Below are positions 7,643 to 57,369 of a stretch of DNA of 64,000 bases, one piece after another. A program made the translations under genes and the position numbers. The DNA is from Escherichia phage vB_Eco_OMNI12. The notes beneath the pieces were generated by a model. It was not told the origin of the DNA. It saw only the letters and a list, made by a program, of their open reading frames with translations, and ran no database searches. The stretch lies in the sequence record OL362041.1. One strand, given 5' to 3'. The stretch's first letter is position 1; every line of letters begins with the position of its first letter.

Positions 7643-8326
7643 TTATCGTTTTGTTGGAAGAGATAGAGGATCGCAATCTTCCTCTGATGGAGCATCTTCA
7701 AGACCCATAGCATATCGCAAAGCGTACTTCATCATCAGGATGTCTTTCGCACAGTCATGAATAGAATCATGCGCAACGAATCCATCTAAAGTTCCTTTTG
7801 GAAGAGGACACGTGGTCATATCACGAACAAGCAGAAGTGCTTCAATTCTGGTACGAATATCACGCTGATTCCAGAATTTACATGGTTCTAACTTAAATGT
7901 GTCAAGTTCATTCTCAGAAACACCATTAAGACGTTGAATATCACGAATGAGATCGACTAAAATTGGAAAATCAAACGACATTCCACGGCACCAGCCTTGA
8001 GATTTCCAAGGATCGATATTATGTGCATTGATGTAATCATTAAATTTCGCAATACCGTCGATAGTGCTTACATCTTCATCGGACGGTGCAATATTTTTTC
8101 GAGCTTCAGGAGACTGATTTTTCCACCATTCGATAGTGCTTTTAGTAAAAAGACGATGTCCTTTTTGGCTTTTTAAATCAAATTTGATTTTAATGCCGCG
8201 TGAAACTAATTCATCAAATGTTTCAACTACTTCTGGGTTAGGGTCAAAAGCAATTACAGCTAAATCAATAACAGCTGCTTTTTCACCACTTCCCATTGTT
8301 TCAAAATCTATAATAAAATCAAACAT
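7643..8326 (-). CDS. dexA: Exonuclease A (DEDD 3-5 exonuclease, 227 aa)
   Basis: 227 aa as T4 DexA; N-terminal DFET acidic motif; position before dda. Confidence 0.85.
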   Translation of the reverse strand: MFDFIIDFETMGSGEKAAVIDLAVIAFDPNPEVVETFDELVSRGIKIKFDLKSQKGHRLFTKSTIEWWKNQSPEARKNIAPSDEDVSTIDGIAKFNDYINAHNIDPWKSQGWCRGMSFDFPILVDLIRDIQRLNGVSENELDTFKLEPCKFWNQRDIRTRIEALLLVRDMTTCPLPKGTLDGFVAHDSIHDCAKDILMMKYALRYAMGLEDAPSEEDCDPLSLPTKR

Positions 8327-8601
8327 TAAATTTTCCTCGCTAAATCACGAATTTGACCTACAGTATAGTCTTGAATATAAACTTTATTGATAGGCTCATC
8401 AATAAATTTTGCCATAGATTCAATATCTTTTTGTATTTCTTCAAGACTGTATACTATCTTTAAAGCTTTTTCGCGAATAGTAATATTTTCAGGACCAGAA
8501 TTTTTCTCAATGACAGCTTTAACATTTGTCATAAGAGATTTAAACTGACACCAACTTAATTCAATCATTAATAATCGCCTTATAAAGATAGCTAATTTCA
8601 C
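8326..8601 (-). CDS. Small protein, member of tandem paralog trio (91 aa)
   Basis: Shares LEEIxxD...V.I.DY..G.I motif with the next ORF; stop overlaps dexA start. Confidence 0.5.
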   Translation of the reverse strand: MKLAIFIRRLLMIELSWCQFKSLMTNVKAVIEKNSGPENITIREKALKIVYSLEEIQKDIESMAKFIDEPINKVYIQDYTVGQIRDLARKI

Positions 8602-8821
8602 CTAAAATATAATCATTGATTGTAACAGTTTTCACTTCACCACAAAAGAATTCTAACGCAATTAAATCTCGTTCAATTTCTTCTAATTGAAGCCTCAACT
8701 TACTAGATTCTATTTTTACAGTTTCACGATTTTTGCTATAAGCAATTTCATAAATTTCGCTTACTTTATCTTGAAGAAGATAAAACTGATCTTTAGTTAT
8801 TTCCACGAATAGCTTCCTCAA
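8561..8821 (-). CDS. Small protein, member of tandem paralog trio (86 aa)
   Basis: Paralogous to flanking ORFs; about 40-nt overlap with each neighbour. Confidence 0.5.
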   Translation of the reverse strand: MRKLFVEITKDQFYLLQDKVSEIYEIAYSKNRETVKIESSKLRLQLEEIERDLIALEFFCGEVKTVTINDYILGEISYLYKAIIND

Positions 8822-9053
8822 ATTTAATTAGTAATTTACAGACACTTTCATCTAATGTAATTACCGTATCTGTATTACTGTGATATGATTGTTTTTCAAT
8901 TCGTTTAATTGCTAATATAGTATCACTTATAAGATAAAGCTTATGAAGGAGCTCAGCTCCTGTTACCATAACATTAAGATTATCTTGCTTATTAGTATGC
9001 TTCCTTATACCATCTATTAGACGATTTAAATATTTTGAATTGATGTTAATCAT
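8793..9053 (-). CDS. Small protein, member of tandem paralog trio (86 aa)
   Basis: Weaker similarity to the other two (IKRIEKQ ... TVITLDES). Confidence 0.45.
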   Translation of the reverse strand: MININSKYLNRLIDGIRKHTNKQDNLNVMVTGAELLHKLYLISDTILAIKRIEKQSYHSNTDTVITLDESVCKLLIKFEEAIRGNN

Positions 9054-9059
9054 ATATCC

Positions 9060-10379
9060 TCACACATAAAATACGTCATAACGACCACGGGTAACACCAA
9101 CATAAAGAAGTTGTTGAGCCAATTCAGCATCTGCATAATGAATACAAGGTGTATAGATGAAAGCACGGTCTACAGACATACCCTGCGCTTTATGGAATGT
9201 TGATGCAGGAAGTGCTTTCACTTTACTAAACTGTGATTTAGCATCCCAAAAATCACTCCATGGAGCTTTTCCACCCTTATTCCAGTTTTTATAAGTTTCT
9301 GCTGTTTTACCTAAAAATAGGTTAAACTTATATAGCTCTTCATCAGATGAAATTATTTTAATCTTTTCACGATAATATTCATCATCGCCGTAAGTTTCTA
9401 CTGTTAAATCCCAATGACGAATTAGATATTCTCCAGAAACACCACGAGCTTTAACAAATGTTGATGTATACTCTGCTTCTATAATACGAACTAATTGTCC
9501 GTTATTAAAAATAATTTCTGACACAGGCTTTCCATCAATTTTATATGTTTTAATTAATGGTTCCTGCATTACAATAATTTCACCGACAATAAAATCTTTA
9601 TCAGTTTCAAAAATCTTTTTACGAATAATGCTATTTAACTTGTCAACAGATTTATTCGTAAATGCCATTACGCGATTTTCAAACAAATCATCTAGAGATT
9701 TTACGATTGAAAAATAATTTACCATAAAATCGCGTAAAGCGGTATCACCTGTAAATCCACGTACTCCATGCCCGTCAACAATTTTATCATAAATCCACTT
9801 ACCGTTACGAACGTCAGTAGCTACATCAATAATAGGAGCATTACTGCGTTTAACTTCAGTGAGTTCACACTGATAAAAATCTTTATGTGTAAAGAATGGA
9901 CTGATATAAGCAGTATTTTCTCCTGGATCAACAGGTCTAATTTGCTTATTATCACCTATTCCAATTATAGTACACCACGGCGGGATAGTTGAAAGCAGAA
10001 TTTTAAATAGCTTTCTATCATACATTGACACTTCGTCGCAGATTAATACCCTGCATTTAGCTAAATCTGGTACTTCCTTCTGTTCAAAAAGAACGTTTTC
10101 TTCATACGTAACTGGGTTAATTTTAAGAATACTGTGAATAGTACTCGCTTCTTTCCCCGACAGTTTTGAAAGAATCTTTTTAGCTGCATGTGTAGGAGCT
10201 GCTAAAATAATACCAGTTTCACCCGTAGATATTAAAGCTTCAATGATGAACTTAGTAAGAGTAGTCTTACCGGTACCAGCAGGTCCATTAATAGTTACAT
10301 GATGTTTCTTTTCTTTAATAGCCCTCATAACGATGTTAAAGGCATTTTTCTGGCCTTCGGTCAAATCATCAAATGTCAT
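9060..10379 (-). CDS. dda: Dda SF1B 5-3 DNA helicase (439 aa)
   Basis: Nearly identical to T4 Dda as I recall it (MTFDDLTEGQKNAFNIV..., Walker A GPAGTGKT). Confidence 0.95.
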   Translation of the reverse strand: MTFDDLTEGQKNAFNIVMRAIKEKKHHVTINGPAGTGKTTLTKFIIEALISTGETGIILAAPTHAAKKILSKLSGKEASTIHSILKINPVTYEENVLFEQKEVPDLAKCRVLICDEVSMYDRKLFKILLSTIPPWCTIIGIGDNKQIRPVDPGENTAYISPFFTHKDFYQCELTEVKRSNAPIIDVATDVRNGKWIYDKIVDGHGVRGFTGDTALRDFMVNYFSIVKSLDDLFENRVMAFTNKSVDKLNSIIRKKIFETDKDFIVGEIIVMQEPLIKTYKIDGKPVSEIIFNNGQLVRIIEAEYTSTFVKARGVSGEYLIRHWDLTVETYGDDEYYREKIKIISSDEELYKFNLFLGKTAETYKNWNKGGKAPWSDFWDAKSQFSKVKALPASTFHKAQGMSVDRAFIYTPCIHYADAELAQQLLYVGVTRGRYDVFYV

Positions 10380-52705: not shown

Positions 52706-53020
52706 CTAAAAGAAACTTCTTTCACAATTTTTTCCACTGAACCACGCACTCACTGCTTTCTTAGTCTCAGGAGCAGTGTTATCCATAAACCATTCAAAGG
52801 CAGCCTTTTTATGATTCTGGAGGGCTTCTCGGGCTTTAATCTGCTCACGGTCTATTAACACTAACATATGAGCCTTTCTTGTCACCAAGGGCTTCTTATG
52901 ATTTTTTGAATATTCCCAATCATTTGTCCAGCGCATCGTTGTTGCGAACTGAAATACTGCTTCTTTAATTTTAGTTTCGTAAATTTCACGAGCCTTTGAG
53001 TATAACATCATTACCTCCAT
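52706..53020 (-). CDS. Hypothetical protein (104 aa)
   Basis: ORF. Confidence 0.45.
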   Translation of the reverse strand: MEVMMLYSKAREIYETKIKEAVFQFATTMRWTNDWEYSKNHKKPLVTRKAHMLVLIDREQIKAREALQNHKKAAFEWFMDNTAPETKKAVSAWFSGKNCERSFF

Positions 53021-53110
53021 TTACCAGTTTAATTCTAGTCATCTTTTTGATGGCAGTCCATATAATCTATTTCTGAACTGCCTTTTTGTCTTAGAAGGCC
53101 TCTTATGAAT

Positions 53111-54079
53111 TTATTTCAGAAGAGTAACCTCAGCGATTTCTTGCCAACCGTTTTTGTCGGTCATAATAAAGTCAGCAAGATAAAGTGCAGTACGCAGTGA
53201 AACATTGCGTAAACGATTAACATTGACTTTCATCCATGATAATGCTTTATAAGTTTCTTCATCAGAAAGACCGCGCTTTTGCATCATGTCGGTTGAAAGA
53301 ATAACATCTTCAACCCTGACCATAATTTCTTCATTAGTGTGAACACCCAAATCTAAATAAACTGAGCGGGACACTAATGCTTGTAAATGTGGAGCAAGTT
53401 TAGTACCACGGTCTAATTCGCGGTCAATGTCAACGTTTGTGATAAAAACAATCGTTCCTTTAAATTCAAACTCACGCTCAATGCCTTTTTCTTCTAAGTA
53501 AGAAGATGCAGTGCTCCAGCAGACTTTACGGGTCTCTCCAGTGTCCAGAGCAGCTTTCAGAAGATTAAGAATGTCCATATCAGAGAAAACATCCACATCA
53601 TCAATCAAAAGGACAGAATTCTCTTCACGATTATTCCAAAGTTGTTCATAAAGACCGATACCGGAGATTTTACCGTTAATGCTTTTATATTCAATGTATC
53701 CATTATCATTTGCTTTATTCAAAGCTTTATCTAAAGAATACGTTTTACCAATACCCGCCGCACCAGAGATAATTAATGAACGAATGTTTCCGTTAATAAT
53801 ACCATTCGTCATCATTCCCATAACATTAAATCTTTTATTAATGCGGGTTTTCATATCTTCATATGATTCTTTAACTTCTTCAACTTTTACACCATCATAT
53901 GAAATGTCTGATTTGTAAACCCAAACACCGCGACGCTTACCGTCAATTTCAACAAAAACTTTACCATCTCCTTGTGCATCTACCGGAGCATTATCTGGGA
54001 ACCATTCACCTAAGAGCTCAAAAGTTCCAGAGATTTCTTTACCGAAGTAGATACCCTTATTGATAGTTACAGTTTTCAT
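53111..54079 (-). CDS. P-loop ATPase (AAA-like; Walker A GAAGIGKT, Walker B LLIDDVD)
   Basis: Track start is GTG; ATG at 54079 with GGAG SD. Confidence 0.6.
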   Translation of the reverse strand: MKTVTINKGIYFGKEISGTFELLGEWFPDNAPVDAQGDGKVFVEIDGKRRGVWVYKSDISYDGVKVEEVKESYEDMKTRINKRFNVMGMMTNGIINGNIRSLIISGAAGIGKTYSLDKALNKANDNGYIEYKSINGKISGIGLYEQLWNNREENSVLLIDDVDVFSDMDILNLLKAALDTGETRKVCWSTASSYLEEKGIEREFEFKGTIVFITNVDIDRELDRGTKLAPHLQALVSRSVYLDLGVHTNEEIMVRVEDVILSTDMMQKRGLSDEETYKALSWMKVNVNRLRNVSLRTALYLADFIMTDKNGWQEIAEVTLLK

Positions 54080-54113
54080 TTTATTCTCCAATCTCACATT
54101 TGTTTTGATAGGG

Positions 54114-54145
54114 TAATAGTATCACACTACTACCCTTCTGTAAAC
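54114..54145 (-). promoter_or_regulatory. T4-type early promoter
   Basis: Minus strand GTTTAC ... TACTAT. Confidence 0.4.
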
Positions 54146-54148
54146 AAT

Positions 54149-54412
54149 TTATTTTAACGTTCGCCAAATTTTTACTGCTTCACGGCGAGATACTTCTACA
54201 GCTCCAAGTTCTACAGCTTTTTGGCGTCGGCGAGCGTGTAAGTCATAATGTTTAATGCGTTTATCTTGAAACCAAGAACGTTTCATTCCTATTGCTTCTG
54301 CCATTTCATGAAGCTCTTCAATATCTCCATCAGTGAACATATGACAATTTTTAGTTGGATGACCGCGAAGTTTCCATCCATGATTCATTAAAACATCTAC
54401 GTAAACTGTCAT
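54149..54412 (-). CDS. Small conserved protein (87 aa), DUF4031-like by motif
   Basis: MTVYVD...GHP.K.CHM..D...ELH..A..IG.KR.WFQ...HYDL pattern recalled from a small DUF family; tentative. Confidence 0.4.
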   Translation of the reverse strand: MTVYVDVLMNHGWKLRGHPTKNCHMFTDGDIEELHEMAEAIGMKRSWFQDKRIKHYDLHARRRQKAVELGAVEVSRREAVKIWRTLK

Positions 54413-54558
54413 TGATTCTTCTCCAAATAAGTTTCGATAATTTTCTGAGCGAGATAAACTGCATTATCTTCAGTTGCATCTTCTAAGAAACTTTCAAAAC
54501 ACTCTGAAATTTCTTCTGTGTCAATCAACTTTTTTACTTCAATTGGTGTAATTTTCAT
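54409..54558 (-). CDS. Hypothetical small acidic protein (about 49 aa)
   Basis: Track ORF spans a promoter and a terminator, so the real start is probably the internal ATG near 54558. Confidence 0.3.
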   Translation of the reverse strand: MKITPIEVKKLIDTEEISECFESFLEDATEDNAVYLAQKIIETYLEKNQ

Positions 54559-54595
54559 TTTGTTTTTCCGTTTAAGTGTTTGTTTTGATAGTTGT

Positions 54596-54625
54596 ATAGT
54601 ACCATAAAGCTTTATGCTTGTAAAC
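54596..54625 (-). promoter_or_regulatory. T4-type early promoter with conserved leader
   Basis: Minus strand GTTTAC ... TGGTACTATAC. Confidence 0.5.
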
Positions 54626-54649
54626 AATTTTGTGAAAAATTTTTGAAAT

Positions 54650-54675
54650 AAAAAAAGGGAGCCCGAAGGCTCCCT
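54650..54675 (-). terminator. Rho-independent terminator after the NTase gene
   Basis: gggagcc cgaa ggctccc followed by a long U-run on the minus strand. Confidence 0.7.
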
Positions 54676-54676
54676 A

Positions 54677-55690
54677 TCATTTATAATAACTTCGGTGGTT
54701 TTCAAGATAAACCCTCTCAAGGAAGTCATCCCAGAAACCCATGTCTACTTTTTGCTGCATACCGTTCTTAGAAGCTTCAGTAGATGCTGCTTCTACTTGA
54801 TCGACCACATCTTCCAAAAACTCTTGAACCGTTTTAAATGGATGTTTACCCAACTTCACGTCGAGAATAAATGGAGCATCTTGGAGTGGATAAACCAAGT
54901 CACCAGTTTTGTAAATTTCCAATAGTTGGAGTCCACCACGGCAAGCATGACTCAGAGCTTTCCAGTCAATGCCCTCATTCGCTTCAGCCTTACGAGCACG
55001 TTCACCGTATTCAGCATCTAATTTGTTCAGTGACTGCTTAAGCTCAATAAGAGAAAGCGTTGTCTGATATTTACGACCCAACACTGTGTAGAACGTCTGT
55101 GGGCCTGTTTTCTCATGATTATGGAACACCCATTCACAGAATTCGTTTTCTGGAAGACGATGCTTAATATCTTCAACTTTAGTACGACGCTGCTTAATAG
55201 AACCATCTTCTTGGTAATCAACCCATTGCTCAGGGATTTCATTAACTACTTTCAATACATCACGTAATGCAGCCAAACGAGAACCCTTAACGCCGTATTT
55301 AGAAGCTTGCTTACGGACATATCCTAAATAGGATTTCATGTTAGTCGTATAAAAACGAGAACGGTTGTCTTGAATAAACTTCCACACATCAGGCAAATCA
55401 GATTTAACCACTAACTCAGGTGGAGTGTGAAGCATATCTAACGCTACAGTTTCACCATCTGCTGCTAATTTAAAGAAATATTTAAGACTGTATAGTTCAT
55501 GGTCAATATCATCTTTAGTGTTTTTAGATGATGTGTTGTTAGTGTTTTTACTCATGTGCTCTTTAACATTTCCAATAAGAATATCACGAGCAGGAGGAAC
55601 AAAGATTTCTTTAAAATCTACATCAGATTCTGGGGTAGAAGTTCCATAAAGATGACTACCAAAATAGCTTTTCATTACTGTTTTCATCAT
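54677..55690 (-). CDS. Predicted Pol-beta-superfamily nucleotidyltransferase (337 aa)
   Basis: N-terminal GS-x10-SDVD signature (FGSHLYGTSTPESDVDF); start overlaps stop of the upstream membrane-protein gene. Confidence 0.55.
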   Translation of the reverse strand: MMKTVMKSYFGSHLYGTSTPESDVDFKEIFVPPARDILIGNVKEHMSKNTNNTSSKNTKDDIDHELYSLKYFFKLAADGETVALDMLHTPPELVVKSDLPDVWKFIQDNRSRFYTTNMKSYLGYVRKQASKYGVKGSRLAALRDVLKVVNEIPEQWVDYQEDGSIKQRRTKVEDIKHRLPENEFCEWVFHNHEKTGPQTFYTVLGRKYQTTLSLIELKQSLNKLDAEYGERARKAEANEGIDWKALSHACRGGLQLLEIYKTGDLVYPLQDAPFILDVKLGKHPFKTVQEFLEDVVDQVEAASTEASKNGMQQKVDMGFWDDFLERVYLENHRSYYK

Positions 55691-56148
55691 TCAGCCTTAT
55701 ATTCAATAACAGGACATACTTTAGCTTTACGCGCTTTTAAAAATTCGACGATAATAGATTTCTTGGGTTGAATAGGAGGTAAACCTTTATACGCCCTATC
55801 AATATTTTCTACATGTAAAGCATAATCCTTTTTCCATTTATAATCTTTATATTTTTCACGCAAGTGTGCAGGAATAACAAATGAACCGATAATAAGTAAA
55901 ACAACCAAAAGTGCAAGTATAAATGCCGATGGAAGAAGAGTCCATAAACTACCAAAAATAAGCCATTTCTGTATGATTTCTGCACAGATAATAGTTAGAC
56001 CTGCGAGTATAGTACATCCGAAAAAAGAAACGAAAAATGTAGGGATAACAATAGACCAAAAGTATGCACACAGTGTCTTAGGTCGTTTCCATTCGTCGTT
56101 AAACAGTTTGAATAATTTATAGTGCCAAGAGTTTTCATTAATAATCAT
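55687..56148 (-). CDS. Membrane protein (153 aa, multiple transmembrane segments)
   Basis: Hydrophobic segments; translationally coupled to the NTase gene. Confidence 0.5.
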   Translation of the reverse strand: MIINENSWHYKLFKLFNDEWKRPKTLCAYFWSIVIPTFFVSFFGCTILAGLTIICAEIIQKWLIFGSLWTLLPSAFILALLVVLLIIGSFVIPAHLREKYKDYKWKKDYALHVENIDRAYKGLPPIQPKKSIIVEFLKARKAKVCPVIEYKAE

Positions 56149-56150
56149 AA

Positions 56151-56672
56151 TTATCCTTTCATTGAAGGTGTAACAGTTGTTAAATACTTAATCATAGCTT
56201 CAGCTTCTGATTTTGATAATGAAATTTCTTCATTGTTTTGACGAATAGAAATAAAATCCGGATGACGGTCACCACCAGCTTTTAAAACACACATATAAGT
56301 ATCAGTTTCATCTTCAATATCTGAAATGATTGAAGCAGTTCCACATGAATGTGGTTTTTGATAAATCAATACAGCTTTTCTTCCACCGTTTGACTGTTCA
56401 TAAACTTTTAACACATCAAACAAATCGCTTCTTTTATCAATAGCTAAGATGTTGTTTTCATCTTCAATATTAAATCCTTCGGATACTTCATAAAGTGTCA
56501 CCCATAAATCACCAATATCAATAACAGCGTTCACTTTTCCATGACTTTCAAGAGCATTACAAATTTTCTTAATTTCATCATAACTCATTTTAATAATATC
56601 ATCTCCTTGAATAAGGAAGATGTCATTTTTAAATTCAACACGAATTAAACCACTTCCACTTGAAATAAACAT
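56151..56672 (-). CDS. Hypothetical protein, paralog pair member (173 aa)
   Basis: C-terminus ...SKSEAEAMIKYLTTVTPSMKG resembles that of the next ORF. Confidence 0.5.
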   Translation of the reverse strand: MFISSGSGLIRVEFKNDIFLIQGDDIIKMSYDEIKKICNALESHGKVNAVIDIGDLWVTLYEVSEGFNIEDENNILAIDKRSDLFDVLKVYEQSNGGRKAVLIYQKPHSCGTASIISDIEDETDTYMCVLKAGGDRHPDFISIRQNNEEISLSKSEAEAMIKYLTTVTPSMKG

Positions 56673-56678
56673 ATTTCC

Positions 56679-57212
56679 TCACTTTGAAATCATAGTTGGA
56701 ATGACAGAATCGAGATAAGTCTTTAGCGCAATAGCTTCGTCTTTGGTAAATGTGACAATATGTGATCGAAAATCGTCGATTTGGCGAATAGTTAAGACAT
56801 CTCCCTCTTCATAACATTTTGATACGTTTAAAACAGTTTCATCATTCTGATTGCAAGCGTTAGTAATAATAGCATTGCAATTTTTGAGCCATTTTAAACT
56901 ATGTTTTCTTTCATTAGAATAATAAAAATATTTAATCTTATCTATAAAACTATCCCAATGGATAACTGATAAACACATTGACTCACTTTTAATATTAAAT
57001 CCTGGGCATGAAGAATAAAAATGAATTTTGTGCTCATCATTGATGCTTACTATTTTATCAGTATAAGGATATTCAATTTGGGTTAAATGAATGATTTCAC
57101 TAGGCGTAAAATATAGCATATCGTCTTCTTGTGTCAAACAATACATATTATTTACTTTTTCTATAGCTAATTCACCAAAAAGCGGACTAACTTCTAATAC
57201 TAATCGTTTCAT
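56679..57212 (-). CDS. Hypothetical protein, paralog pair member (about 177 aa)
   Basis: Track start is GTG; ATG at 57212; C-terminus ...TKDEAIALKTYLDSVIPTMISK. Confidence 0.5.
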   Translation of the reverse strand: MKRLVLEVSPLFGELAIEKVNNMYCLTQEDDMLYFTPSEIIHLTQIEYPYTDKIVSINDEHKIHFYSSCPGFNIKSESMCLSVIHWDSFIDKIKYFYYSNERKHSLKWLKNCNAIITNACNQNDETVLNVSKCYEEGDVLTIRQIDDFRSHIVTFTKDEAIALKTYLDSVIPTMISK

Positions 57213-57369
57213 ATTGATTCTCTTCGACTCACTCACAATTACATACTCCTTTGAATAATATCAATAATGTTGTTCACCAGATTATAAGTAAACATTGGAT
57301 AATTATATTGAATCATCACATACACAACAAACAAAACTTTCATTCTCTTCTCCTTGGCAGTTGACAAGA

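Follow-up and report, generated by a model that had tools for sequence, protein, structure and literature searches.

Positions 53,111–56,148 of a 64,000-nucleotide stretch of DNA from Escherichia phage vB_Eco_OMNI12 (sequence record OL362041.1; this whole stretch is hereafter called the window) contain nrdC.11, a gene for a predicted nucleotidyltransferase (NTase), together with nrdC.10, which encodes an AAA+ ATPase, and genes for a membrane protein and two small proteins. An original prediction for this DNA had likened the ATPase, one small conserved protein, the NTase and the membrane protein to a signalling or anti-defence module. The results described below point instead to independent genes brought together in a variable region, among which NrdC.11 appears to be a divergent member of the RlaP family with a plausible accessory role in RNA repair.

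A DNA search with positions 52900–56800 revealed 99.8% identity to several Escherichia Tequatrovirus genomes; 672 phage records matched, 401 of which span most of the region, and the source phage can be assigned to Tequatrovirus (T4-like phages). In T4-like phages, the stretch corresponds to the nrdC.10–nrdC.11 part of 'nrdC-tk', a hyperplastic region that is early and non-essential; the names NrdC.10 and NrdC.11 were taken from the RefSeq record NC_054914 (a 98%-identical phage) and from the T4 annotation. The GC content of the window is 0.29–0.37, with negative GC skew throughout. All genes of this part, and all motifs and signals described below, are on the minus strand. NrdC.11, a Pol-beta-fold NTase of the RlaP family (337 aa; 54677–55690), is preceded by the gene of the membrane protein (153 aa; 55687–56148; phrog_944/phrog_22816), the stop codon of which overlaps the NTase start (GAATGATGA), and is followed by an open reading frame (ORF) of 49 aa (54409–54558; phrog_6888, E 5e-31), a DUF4031 protein of 87 aa (54149–54412; PF13223), and NrdC.10 (53111–54097; 328 aa as mechanically called), an AAA+ ATPase. 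These ORFs are considered genuine rather than chance ones because of the 672 phage DNA matches and the strong PHROG or Pfam family match found for each protein. The four genes listed in the original prediction are all present at the positions given, on the minus strand, including the overlap of the stop of the membrane-protein gene with the NTase start; it had overlooked the 49-aa ORF as a fifth gene, the terminator that directly follows the NTase gene, and the two early promoters between genes of the supposed cluster.

The assignment of NrdC.11 to the Pol-beta-type NTases was borne out by both family profiles and motif conservation. The protein matches the Pfam family PF10127 ('RlaP, RNA repair pathway DNA polymerase beta family') over residues 7–135 with a score of 44.2 bits (gathering threshold 23; E 2.4e-11) and phrog_388 ('nucleotidyltransferase') with an E value of 1e-136, and a precomputed PF10127 match is recorded for each of the 240 homologues listed. 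With tblastn, NrdC.11 was detected in 1,519 phage records; the hosts range from Escherichia to Aeromonas, Acinetobacter and Vibrio, and a roseophage is included. Conservation was assessed in two alignments: a small one, with six homologues at identities as low as 31%, and a larger one, with 132 homologues reaching down to about 30%. In the NTase signature, G11-S12-x9-S22-D23-V24-D25 (55616–55660), G11, D23 and D25 are invariant in both alignments, and S12 is conserved in at least 90% of the 132 homologues; the original prediction had recognised this signature but gave its spacing as GS-x10, the actual one being GS-x9-SDVD. The third catalytic carboxylate, D63, is located in the strand DIDHELY (55490–55510); its conservation had been named as a test of the prediction, and it proved invariant in all 132 homologues, with E65 conserved in at least 90% of them. 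With this third carboxylate, NrdC.11 fits the Pol-beta signature hG[GS]-x9-13-DxD. A further motif, D242-W-K244...H248-A-x-R251 (54938–54967), lies in the C-terminal domain; D242, K244, H248 and R251 are invariant in both alignments, and the motif probably lines the substrate cleft. Judged from its sequence, NrdC.11 is a divergent branch of the RlaP family with an intact three-carboxylate active site.

In the AlphaFold (AF2) model of NrdC.11 (predicted local distance difference test score, pLDDT, 87.4; predicted template modelling score, pTM, 0.70), an N-terminal NTase core is joined to a C-terminal helical domain, which resembles HEPN-type bundles on comparison of the model. Between the two domains lies a beta-rich insert of five strands (residues ~152–212; 55055–55237) that, from its place in the model, could act as a substrate-binding module. 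This insert is the most variable and gap-rich region of the alignment and falls outside the Pfam RlaP match. A Foldseek comparison of the model with the PDB yielded weak matches only (best E value 5.7e-3, TM-score about 0.25), among them 3c18, kanamycin/ANT nucleotidyltransferases, HalB, LinB, Tam41 and MNT, with no fold match to CD-NTase, cGAS or OAS enzymes, and PDB sequence searches with the single sequence and with the 132-sequence profile returned nothing meaningful. The kanamycin and lincosamide nucleotidyltransferases and 3c18 (an 'NTase-like protein') have the same two-domain layout as NrdC.11, a minimal NTase followed by a HEPN-like helical bundle. HalB of the Hailong system (PDB 9dbh), a protein of 217 aa which makes protein-primed oligo-dA, is 15% identical to NrdC.11 and showed no sequence-profile match to it.

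Scans of six window proteins with PADLOC and NCBIfam gave no usable match, and this result, together with the weakness of the Foldseek matches, indicates that NrdC.11 is not a CD-NTase-type signalling enzyme. The NCBIfam MntA model scored 13.2 bits against a cut-off of 60, and an MNT-HEPN toxin–antitoxin was rejected on the basis of this score, the length of NrdC.11 (337 aa), and the lack of a partner HEPN gene. The Pfam scan found no match of NrdC.11 to PF01743, the PolyA_pol head of CCA-adding enzymes and poly(A) polymerases; genuine CCA enzymes are encoded by separate neighbouring genes in some NrdC.11 loci.

An RNA-repair role of phage RlaPs was predicted in earlier literature, and as early as 2006 an AAA motif had been noted in NrdC.10 and a match to a nucleotidyltransferase domain (COG3541) in NrdC.11. 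Two RlaPs of Pseudomonas, PfRlaP from P. fluorescens and PaRlaP from P. aeruginosa, were characterised in a December 2025 preprint by Carruthers, Fatma and Huang (PMC12776372; bioRxiv 10.64898/2025.12.29.696909). These enzymes transfer one or two nucleoside or deoxynucleoside monophosphates onto the 3'-OH of RNA with a preference for Mn2+, and neither DNA nor protein is a substrate; rRNA- and tRNA-sized species are labelled with little specificity for the nucleoside triphosphate (NTP), and the 3' end at a nicked anticodon loop is favoured (PMC12776372). After RlaP-aided repair of a tRNA missing one anticodon-loop nucleotide, aminoacylation was partly regained, and the crystal structure of PfRlaP comprises an NTase domain and a C-terminal helical domain with a cleft between them (PMC12776372). 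The authors proposed that RlaP is an antidote to 'smart' ribotoxins (RloC), which excise a nucleotide after cutting, and in their sequence similarity network (SSN) of PF10127, T4 NrdC.11 was placed in SSN cluster 5 and PfRlaP and PaRlaP in cluster 1a (PMC12776372). Since PF10127 has been predicted to act in RNA repair, bacterial members have been characterised, and T4 NrdC.11 has been named as a member, the description of the NTase in the original prediction as functionally unassigned is out of date; its suggestion that the enzyme may act on RNA in phage–host conflict is supported. NrdC.11 shares with the RlaP family the score above the Pfam threshold, the three invariant aspartates and, to judge by its AF2 model, apparently also the succession of an N-terminal NTase and a C-terminal helical domain, and its relatives likewise adjoin genes for RNA ligases and end-healing enzymes. 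Unlike canonical RlaPs, NrdC.11 is about 60–90 aa longer and contains the beta-rich insert, and canonical RlaP profiles align only to its first ~100–135 residues.

The gene context of NrdC.11 relatives was analysed in 107 pattern-retrieved loci (78 viral and 29 bacterial or from metagenome-assembled genomes, MAGs; individual loci are designated by L numbers), the neighbouring ORFs of which were clustered and the representatives annotated with Pfam. In a Chlamydiales MAG (L095; JARBTQ010000014.1, 3975–10836), genes encoding Hen1, Pnkp, an NrdC.11-like NTase, a canonical RlaP, and an RNA ligase are consecutive on one strand (PNKP_ligase, E 1e-161; canonical RlaP, E 7e-67; ligase with RNA_ligase/PHA02142 OB matches). 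Two different RlaP-type NTases thereby stand side by side in a five-gene RNA-repair operon. In a Rickettsiales MAG (L089), the gene for a fused AAA_33 kinase–metallophosphatase–T4-Rnl1-type ligase stops 7 nt before the NTase gene. An HD-kinase gene is shared by seven related viral contigs (L074–L078, L080 and L081), in each of which ORF clustering also placed a ligase-cluster member immediately upstream of the NTase; for L078, Pfam verified that the ligase is of the Rnl1 type, and it confirmed the HD-kinase and a second kinase of this contig as well. An AAA_33 kinase gene is located directly upstream of the NTase in L063, and CCA-adding enzymes or HD proteins adjoin the NTase or are found near it in five loci (L098, L108, L079, L082 and L083). 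An RNA-repair role of NrdC.11 is therefore supported by gene context in several independent lineages.

The NrdC.11-like gene is followed, at 27–132 bp, by a gene for a canonical RlaP in ten bacterial loci; two others have such a gene about 1.6–1.8 kb downstream. Examples of such tandems are L090, L093, L097, L102–L106 and L113 (at about positions 8000–9850 in each), which are stand-alone two-gene units with unrelated flanks. The frequent tandem arrangement in bacteria suggests that the NrdC.11-like clade has a role distinct from that of canonical RlaP, and that the two act together or in sequence. The idea that an RNA-repair operon is the general context of the bacterial tandem pairs was rejected, being true of L095 and not of L097, L102, L106, L101 and L092.

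Some further neighbours were recorded as side observations. Homologues of the NTase were found within tRNA arrays in roseophage DSS3_MAL1 (L006, 3763–14849; 25 tRNAs, the nearest at 479 bp, and a tmRNA gene as well) and in L073 (24 tRNAs, the nearest at 149 bp); tRNA proximity looked promising as a functional signal in these two loci and was dropped, since a tRNA gene lies within 2 kb of the NTase in only three of 113 loci. NAD-salvage genes are located a few kb from NrdC.11 in Aeromonas-type phages and related viral contigs (Aeromonas phage 25, L003, 5782–6840 and 10571–12052; L061; L065); the set includes an NMN adenylyltransferase/NUDIX fusion, NadV, and, from an unverified reading of the sequence, a possible ribose-phosphate pyrophosphokinase.

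The genes of the stretch are separated by transcription signals. An intrinsic terminator (54656–54675), the stem-loop AGGGAGCC-TTCG-GGCTCCCT with T7 behind it, begins 2 nt beyond the stop codon of NrdC.11; its stem has 8 bp, including six GC pairs, and the whole structure is identical in T4. The membrane-protein gene and nrdC.11 are predicted to be translationally coupled and to form a unit ending at this strong terminator. A site resembling an early promoter, TTTACA-17-TACTAT including an extended -10 TG (54596–54624), is located ahead of the 49-aa ORF and the DUF4031 gene and would drive both, and a second early-promoter copy, TTTACA-17-TACTAT ... CTATCAAAACAAA (54116–54144), lies immediately upstream of NrdC.10, so that a direct repeat bounds the two small genes. 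The presence of a terminator and two promoters implies at least three transcription units. An Rfam scan of 52–58 kb returned a sole match, to the L20 leader (54643–54804, minus strand; 27.8 bits against a gathering threshold of 58.7; E 0.024), and this sub-threshold match over the 3' end of NrdC.11 and the terminator was taken as a chance one. The window contains no tRNA genes.

Promoter-early stem-loops (PeSLs) are mobile regulatory cassettes of T4-type phages, with the PST/T4 promoter consensus TTTACW-N17-TAYWAT (Arbiol 2010; Comeau 2014). The window promoter fits this consensus, and the terminator and the first promoter correspond to the stem-loop and promoter halves of a PeSL: a stem-loop terminator is followed by an early promoter in a hyperplastic region, and the pair bounds an indel relative to T4. 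Unlike in PeSL cassettes, the inserted cassette of the window has at its distal end a second copy of the promoter half alone. In T4 (L002, 11300–11460), the same stem-loop and promoter lead straight into the ribosome-binding site of NrdC.10, and the cassette comprising the 49-aa ORF and DUF4031, which T4 lacks, sits exactly at this junction. The stop of the 49-aa ORF overlaps the DUF4031 start (ATGA), and the two genes appear to be translationally coupled. They occur together, at varying positions, in nine of the ten loci with DUF4031, and the cassette is 95% identical among phages whose NTases are 68% identical. All this is indicative of a PeSL-flanked mobile two-gene cassette, a clean case of PeSL-mediated modular shuffling. 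The DUF4031 protein, the 'small conserved protein' of the original prediction, belongs to the PF13223 family (77.7 bits against a cut-off of 25.6; E 8e-22), which is also found in unrelated phages of Ralstonia, Mycobacterium and Labrenzia; the literature on DUF4031 was uninformative, and a PDB sequence search with this protein revealed nothing meaningful.

The NrdC.10 gene most likely starts at ATG 54079 rather than at the mechanically called GTG 54097. The former is preceded by a GGAG Shine-Dalgarno sequence 8 nt upstream, gives a protein of 322 aa, as in RefSeq, and agrees with the start of the PHROG profile, while GTG 54097 is located only about 12 nt after the promoter -10. Both ATPase motifs reported in the original prediction were recovered: Walker A, GAAGIGKT (residues 112–119; 53741–53764), in which G112, A113, G115, G117 and K118 are invariant among 99 homologues, and Walker B, LLIDDVD (residues 163–169; 53591–53611), with D166 and D167 invariant in the same set. 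N221, likely at the sensor-1 position, R244 and R302 are invariant as well, and the conservation of all these residues suggests that NrdC.10 is probably an active ATPase. Its predicted structure (pLDDT 91.1) consists of an N-terminal beta domain (approximately residues 9–67) followed by an AAA+ base and lid. Foldseek found 180 PDB matches at E<=1e-3, and those listed at the top are overwhelmingly AAA+ proteins. The TM-scores were 0.33–0.45 to many of them, with dynein, ORC/Cdc6, RuvB, Hda, RFC and PspF about equal, and the RFC/Cdc6 matches of sequence profiles were marginal only; an attempt to assign NrdC.10 to a specific AAA+ clade failed, as the candidates score alike. With the clamp-loader, initiator and RuvB-type AAA+ proteins it shares the invariant Walker A and B motifs, the sensor-1 Asn, a conserved Arg and the base-plus-lid architecture, and it is distinguished from them by the unique N-terminal beta domain. 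This is a small family (221 clusters at E<=1e-5), the named representatives of which come almost exclusively from phages. The comparative data provided no mechanistic tie between NrdC.10 and NrdC.11.

The product of the gene coupled to nrdC.11 is indeed a membrane protein, as the original prediction stated, but its 'multi-TM' character should be corrected to two or three hydrophobic spans between residues ~25 and ~98. No PDB chain was matched by its sequence. It diverges much faster than the NTase, with identities of 23–50% in most loci against 51–84% for the NTase, and its gene is directly beside NrdC.11 in 12 of 41 loci, with one to three genes lying between in the others. In T4, the mobD homing endonuclease gene occupies the position of the membrane-protein gene and of a second y05I-like gene. 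Upstream of the membrane-protein gene, the window contains two tandem y05I/MobD.1-like genes (56151–56672 and 56679–57236) with the 'putative transcription factor' domains PF24449 and PF24448, where T4 has mobD and a single mobD.1. In T4-like GenBank records, NrdC.4–NrdC.11 and NrdC.10 are often labelled 'thioredoxin', and MobD.x in many of them is labelled 'molybdopterin-guanine dinucleotide biosynthesis protein MobD'; both labels are name-propagation errors from T4 gene names.

Taking these data jointly, we favour, with moderate confidence, the explanation that the stretch contains three independent units, namely the membrane-protein gene with nrdC.11, the cassette of the 49-aa ORF and DUF4031, and nrdC.10, and that NrdC.11 is an RlaP-type RNA 3'-end nucleotidyltransferase aiding the tRNA repair performed by Pnk and Rnl1 against nucleotide-excising anticodon nucleases. 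A host anticodon nuclease of the RloC type would cut tRNA and trim nucleotides from it. By analogy with the bacterial RlaPs, from which we infer both the enzymatic activity and the biological target of NrdC.11, the protein would most likely extend the 3'-OH end of the damaged RNA by one or two nucleotides in a template-independent manner. The trimmed nucleotides would thus be restored, and a functional tRNA could then be resealed by the polynucleotide kinase/phosphatase and the RNA ligase 1 of the phage, the genes for which lie elsewhere in its genome. T4 is the phage in which RNA repair was discovered, with Pnk and Rnl1 countering the PrrC anticodon nuclease.

Several observations weigh against this explanation. 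The biochemically characterised RlaPs and NrdC.11 sit in different SSN clusters (1a and 5, respectively), and hhalign aligned the NrdC.11 clade with canonical RlaP over residues 2–96, the N-terminal core, only (E 0.0018, probability 15%); as the alignment is confined to this core, the middle beta-insert and the C-terminal domain may confer a different substrate. Linkage to ligase or Pnkp genes is limited to a subset of lineages, most bacterial loci being stand-alone NTase pairs with unrelated flanks, and tRNA genes are seldom close to the NTase, as noted above. No RNA ligase, Pnkp or other RNA-repair gene is present beside NrdC.11 in the window. Finally, NrdC.10 and the membrane protein stay near NrdC.11 across Tevenvirinae and Acinetobacter T4-like phages, and these kept positions mean that a looser functional link between them and NrdC.11 may exist.

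NrdC.11 could alternatively act on RNA outside anticodon-loop repair, mending or tailing other 3' ends, such as the tRNA 3'-CCA together with a CCA-adding enzyme, or tagging host RNAs and thereby altering their stability. The broad labelling of rRNA- and tRNA-sized species by RlaP, with its little NTP specificity, is compatible with such a role, as are the two phage homologues inside tRNA arrays, the HD phosphohydrolase genes adjacent to the NTase in L079, L082 and L083, and the CCA-adding enzymes (PolyA_pol, RNA-binding and HD domains) encoded near it in L098 and L108 and about 4–5 kb off in L058, L064 and L066. Nevertheless, the host already supplies a CCA-adding enzyme, tRNA proximity is rare, and the tightest linkages are those to end-healing and sealing enzymes (Pnkp, Hen1 and Rnl1), so we regard this role as possible but unlikely.

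The reading of the ATPase, DUF4031, NTase and membrane protein as a single module for signalling or anti-defence, where a nucleotide signal made by the NTase would be sensed or executed by the ATPase and the membrane protein, draws on the location of all genes on the same strand, their early transcription, and the fact that in most Tevenvirinae and Acinetobacter T4-like phages NrdC.10 is found 100–2300 bp downstream and a membrane-protein homologue upstream of NrdC.11. Against it stand the terminator and the separate promoters between the genes and the arrangement in T4, the NrdC.11 (NP_049709) and NrdC.10 (NP_049708) proteins of which are 98–99% identical to those of the window and have the same order, strand, terminator and promoter between them, while two of the four genes, those for DUF4031 (with its 49-aa partner) and the membrane protein, are absent. 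Among the 107 loci, NrdC.10 was found within 10 kb of the NTase in 37, the membrane protein in 41 and DUF4031 in ten; all four neighbours occur together in nine loci, and the gene order of the window in five. At NTase identities below 47% (23 viral and 27 bacterial loci), NrdC.10 was present in one of 50 loci, a bacterial one (L087), and the other three neighbours in none, so the 23 viral loci contain none of the four. NrdC.10 is also unlinked from the NTase elsewhere: in Aeromonas phage 25 the two are more than 100 kb apart, with NrdC.11 at 44 kb and NrdC.10 flanked by motA and asiA at 149 kb; in Vibrio phage D485, NrdC.10 lies between nrdAB and topoisomerase II, and in RaK2 among hypothetical genes. 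The numbers of records per host genus differ for NrdC.10 and NrdC.11 as well, being 121 versus 59 for Vibrio and 149 versus 286 for Klebsiella. With the lack of a PADLOC match and of a CD-NTase or OAS fold, and with DUF4031 also occurring in unrelated phages, the module is very improbable; the gene-neighbourhood comparison proposed in the original prediction has turned out against it, and it is already largely refuted by comparative data. The four-gene 'module' appears to reflect a chance arrangement of genes within a hyperplastic region, with the neighbours being independent genes.

Two other activities were considered for NrdC.11. Nucleotidylation of a small molecule or a protein rather than RNA, as performed by aminoglycoside and lincosamide nucleotidyltransferases or MNT antitoxins, with which the two-domain layout is shared, is hardly likely, given that the PF10127 enzymes labelled RNA but left protein and DNA unlabelled, that the MntA match reached 13 bits instead of 60, and that the gene context is one of RNA repair. 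Least probable of all is that the coupled membrane protein and NrdC.11 are a pair like Hailong, a two-gene system of a transmembrane (TM) protein and an NTase, with a TM effector or channel and an oligonucleotide-making NTase, or that NrdC.11 oligonucleotides hold a host HalA-type channel shut as an anti-Hailong decoy: the pairing is Hailong's own make-up, the genes overlap, and in T4 the membrane gene was lost and the NTase kept, the direction of loss that an effector/guard pair can tolerate, but the NTase profile shows no sequence similarity to HalB, the membrane protein matches no PDB chain by sequence, PADLOC gave no match, and, in contrast to the obligate two-gene Hailong operon, the phage membrane partner is dispensable, often parted from the NTase by other genes, and absent both from T4 and from all distant NTase loci, which hold RNA-repair genes.

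The gene set itself was already known, consisting of a long-annotated T4 gene pair and two variable insertions, and the T4 block nrdC.11–mobD.3 has been found to be deletable. Since the repair idea has also been proposed in the literature, the present finding adds little to it, and its practical value is a negative one, in that it advises against mining this four-gene stretch for signalling or anti-defence functions. NrdC.11 remains a plausible RNA-repair accessory. If it does restore the nucleotides trimmed by RloC-like nucleases, it would represent a third, overlooked component of the classic T4 RNA-repair pathway, and such a role would explain the retention of NrdC.11 in more than 1,500 phage genomes.

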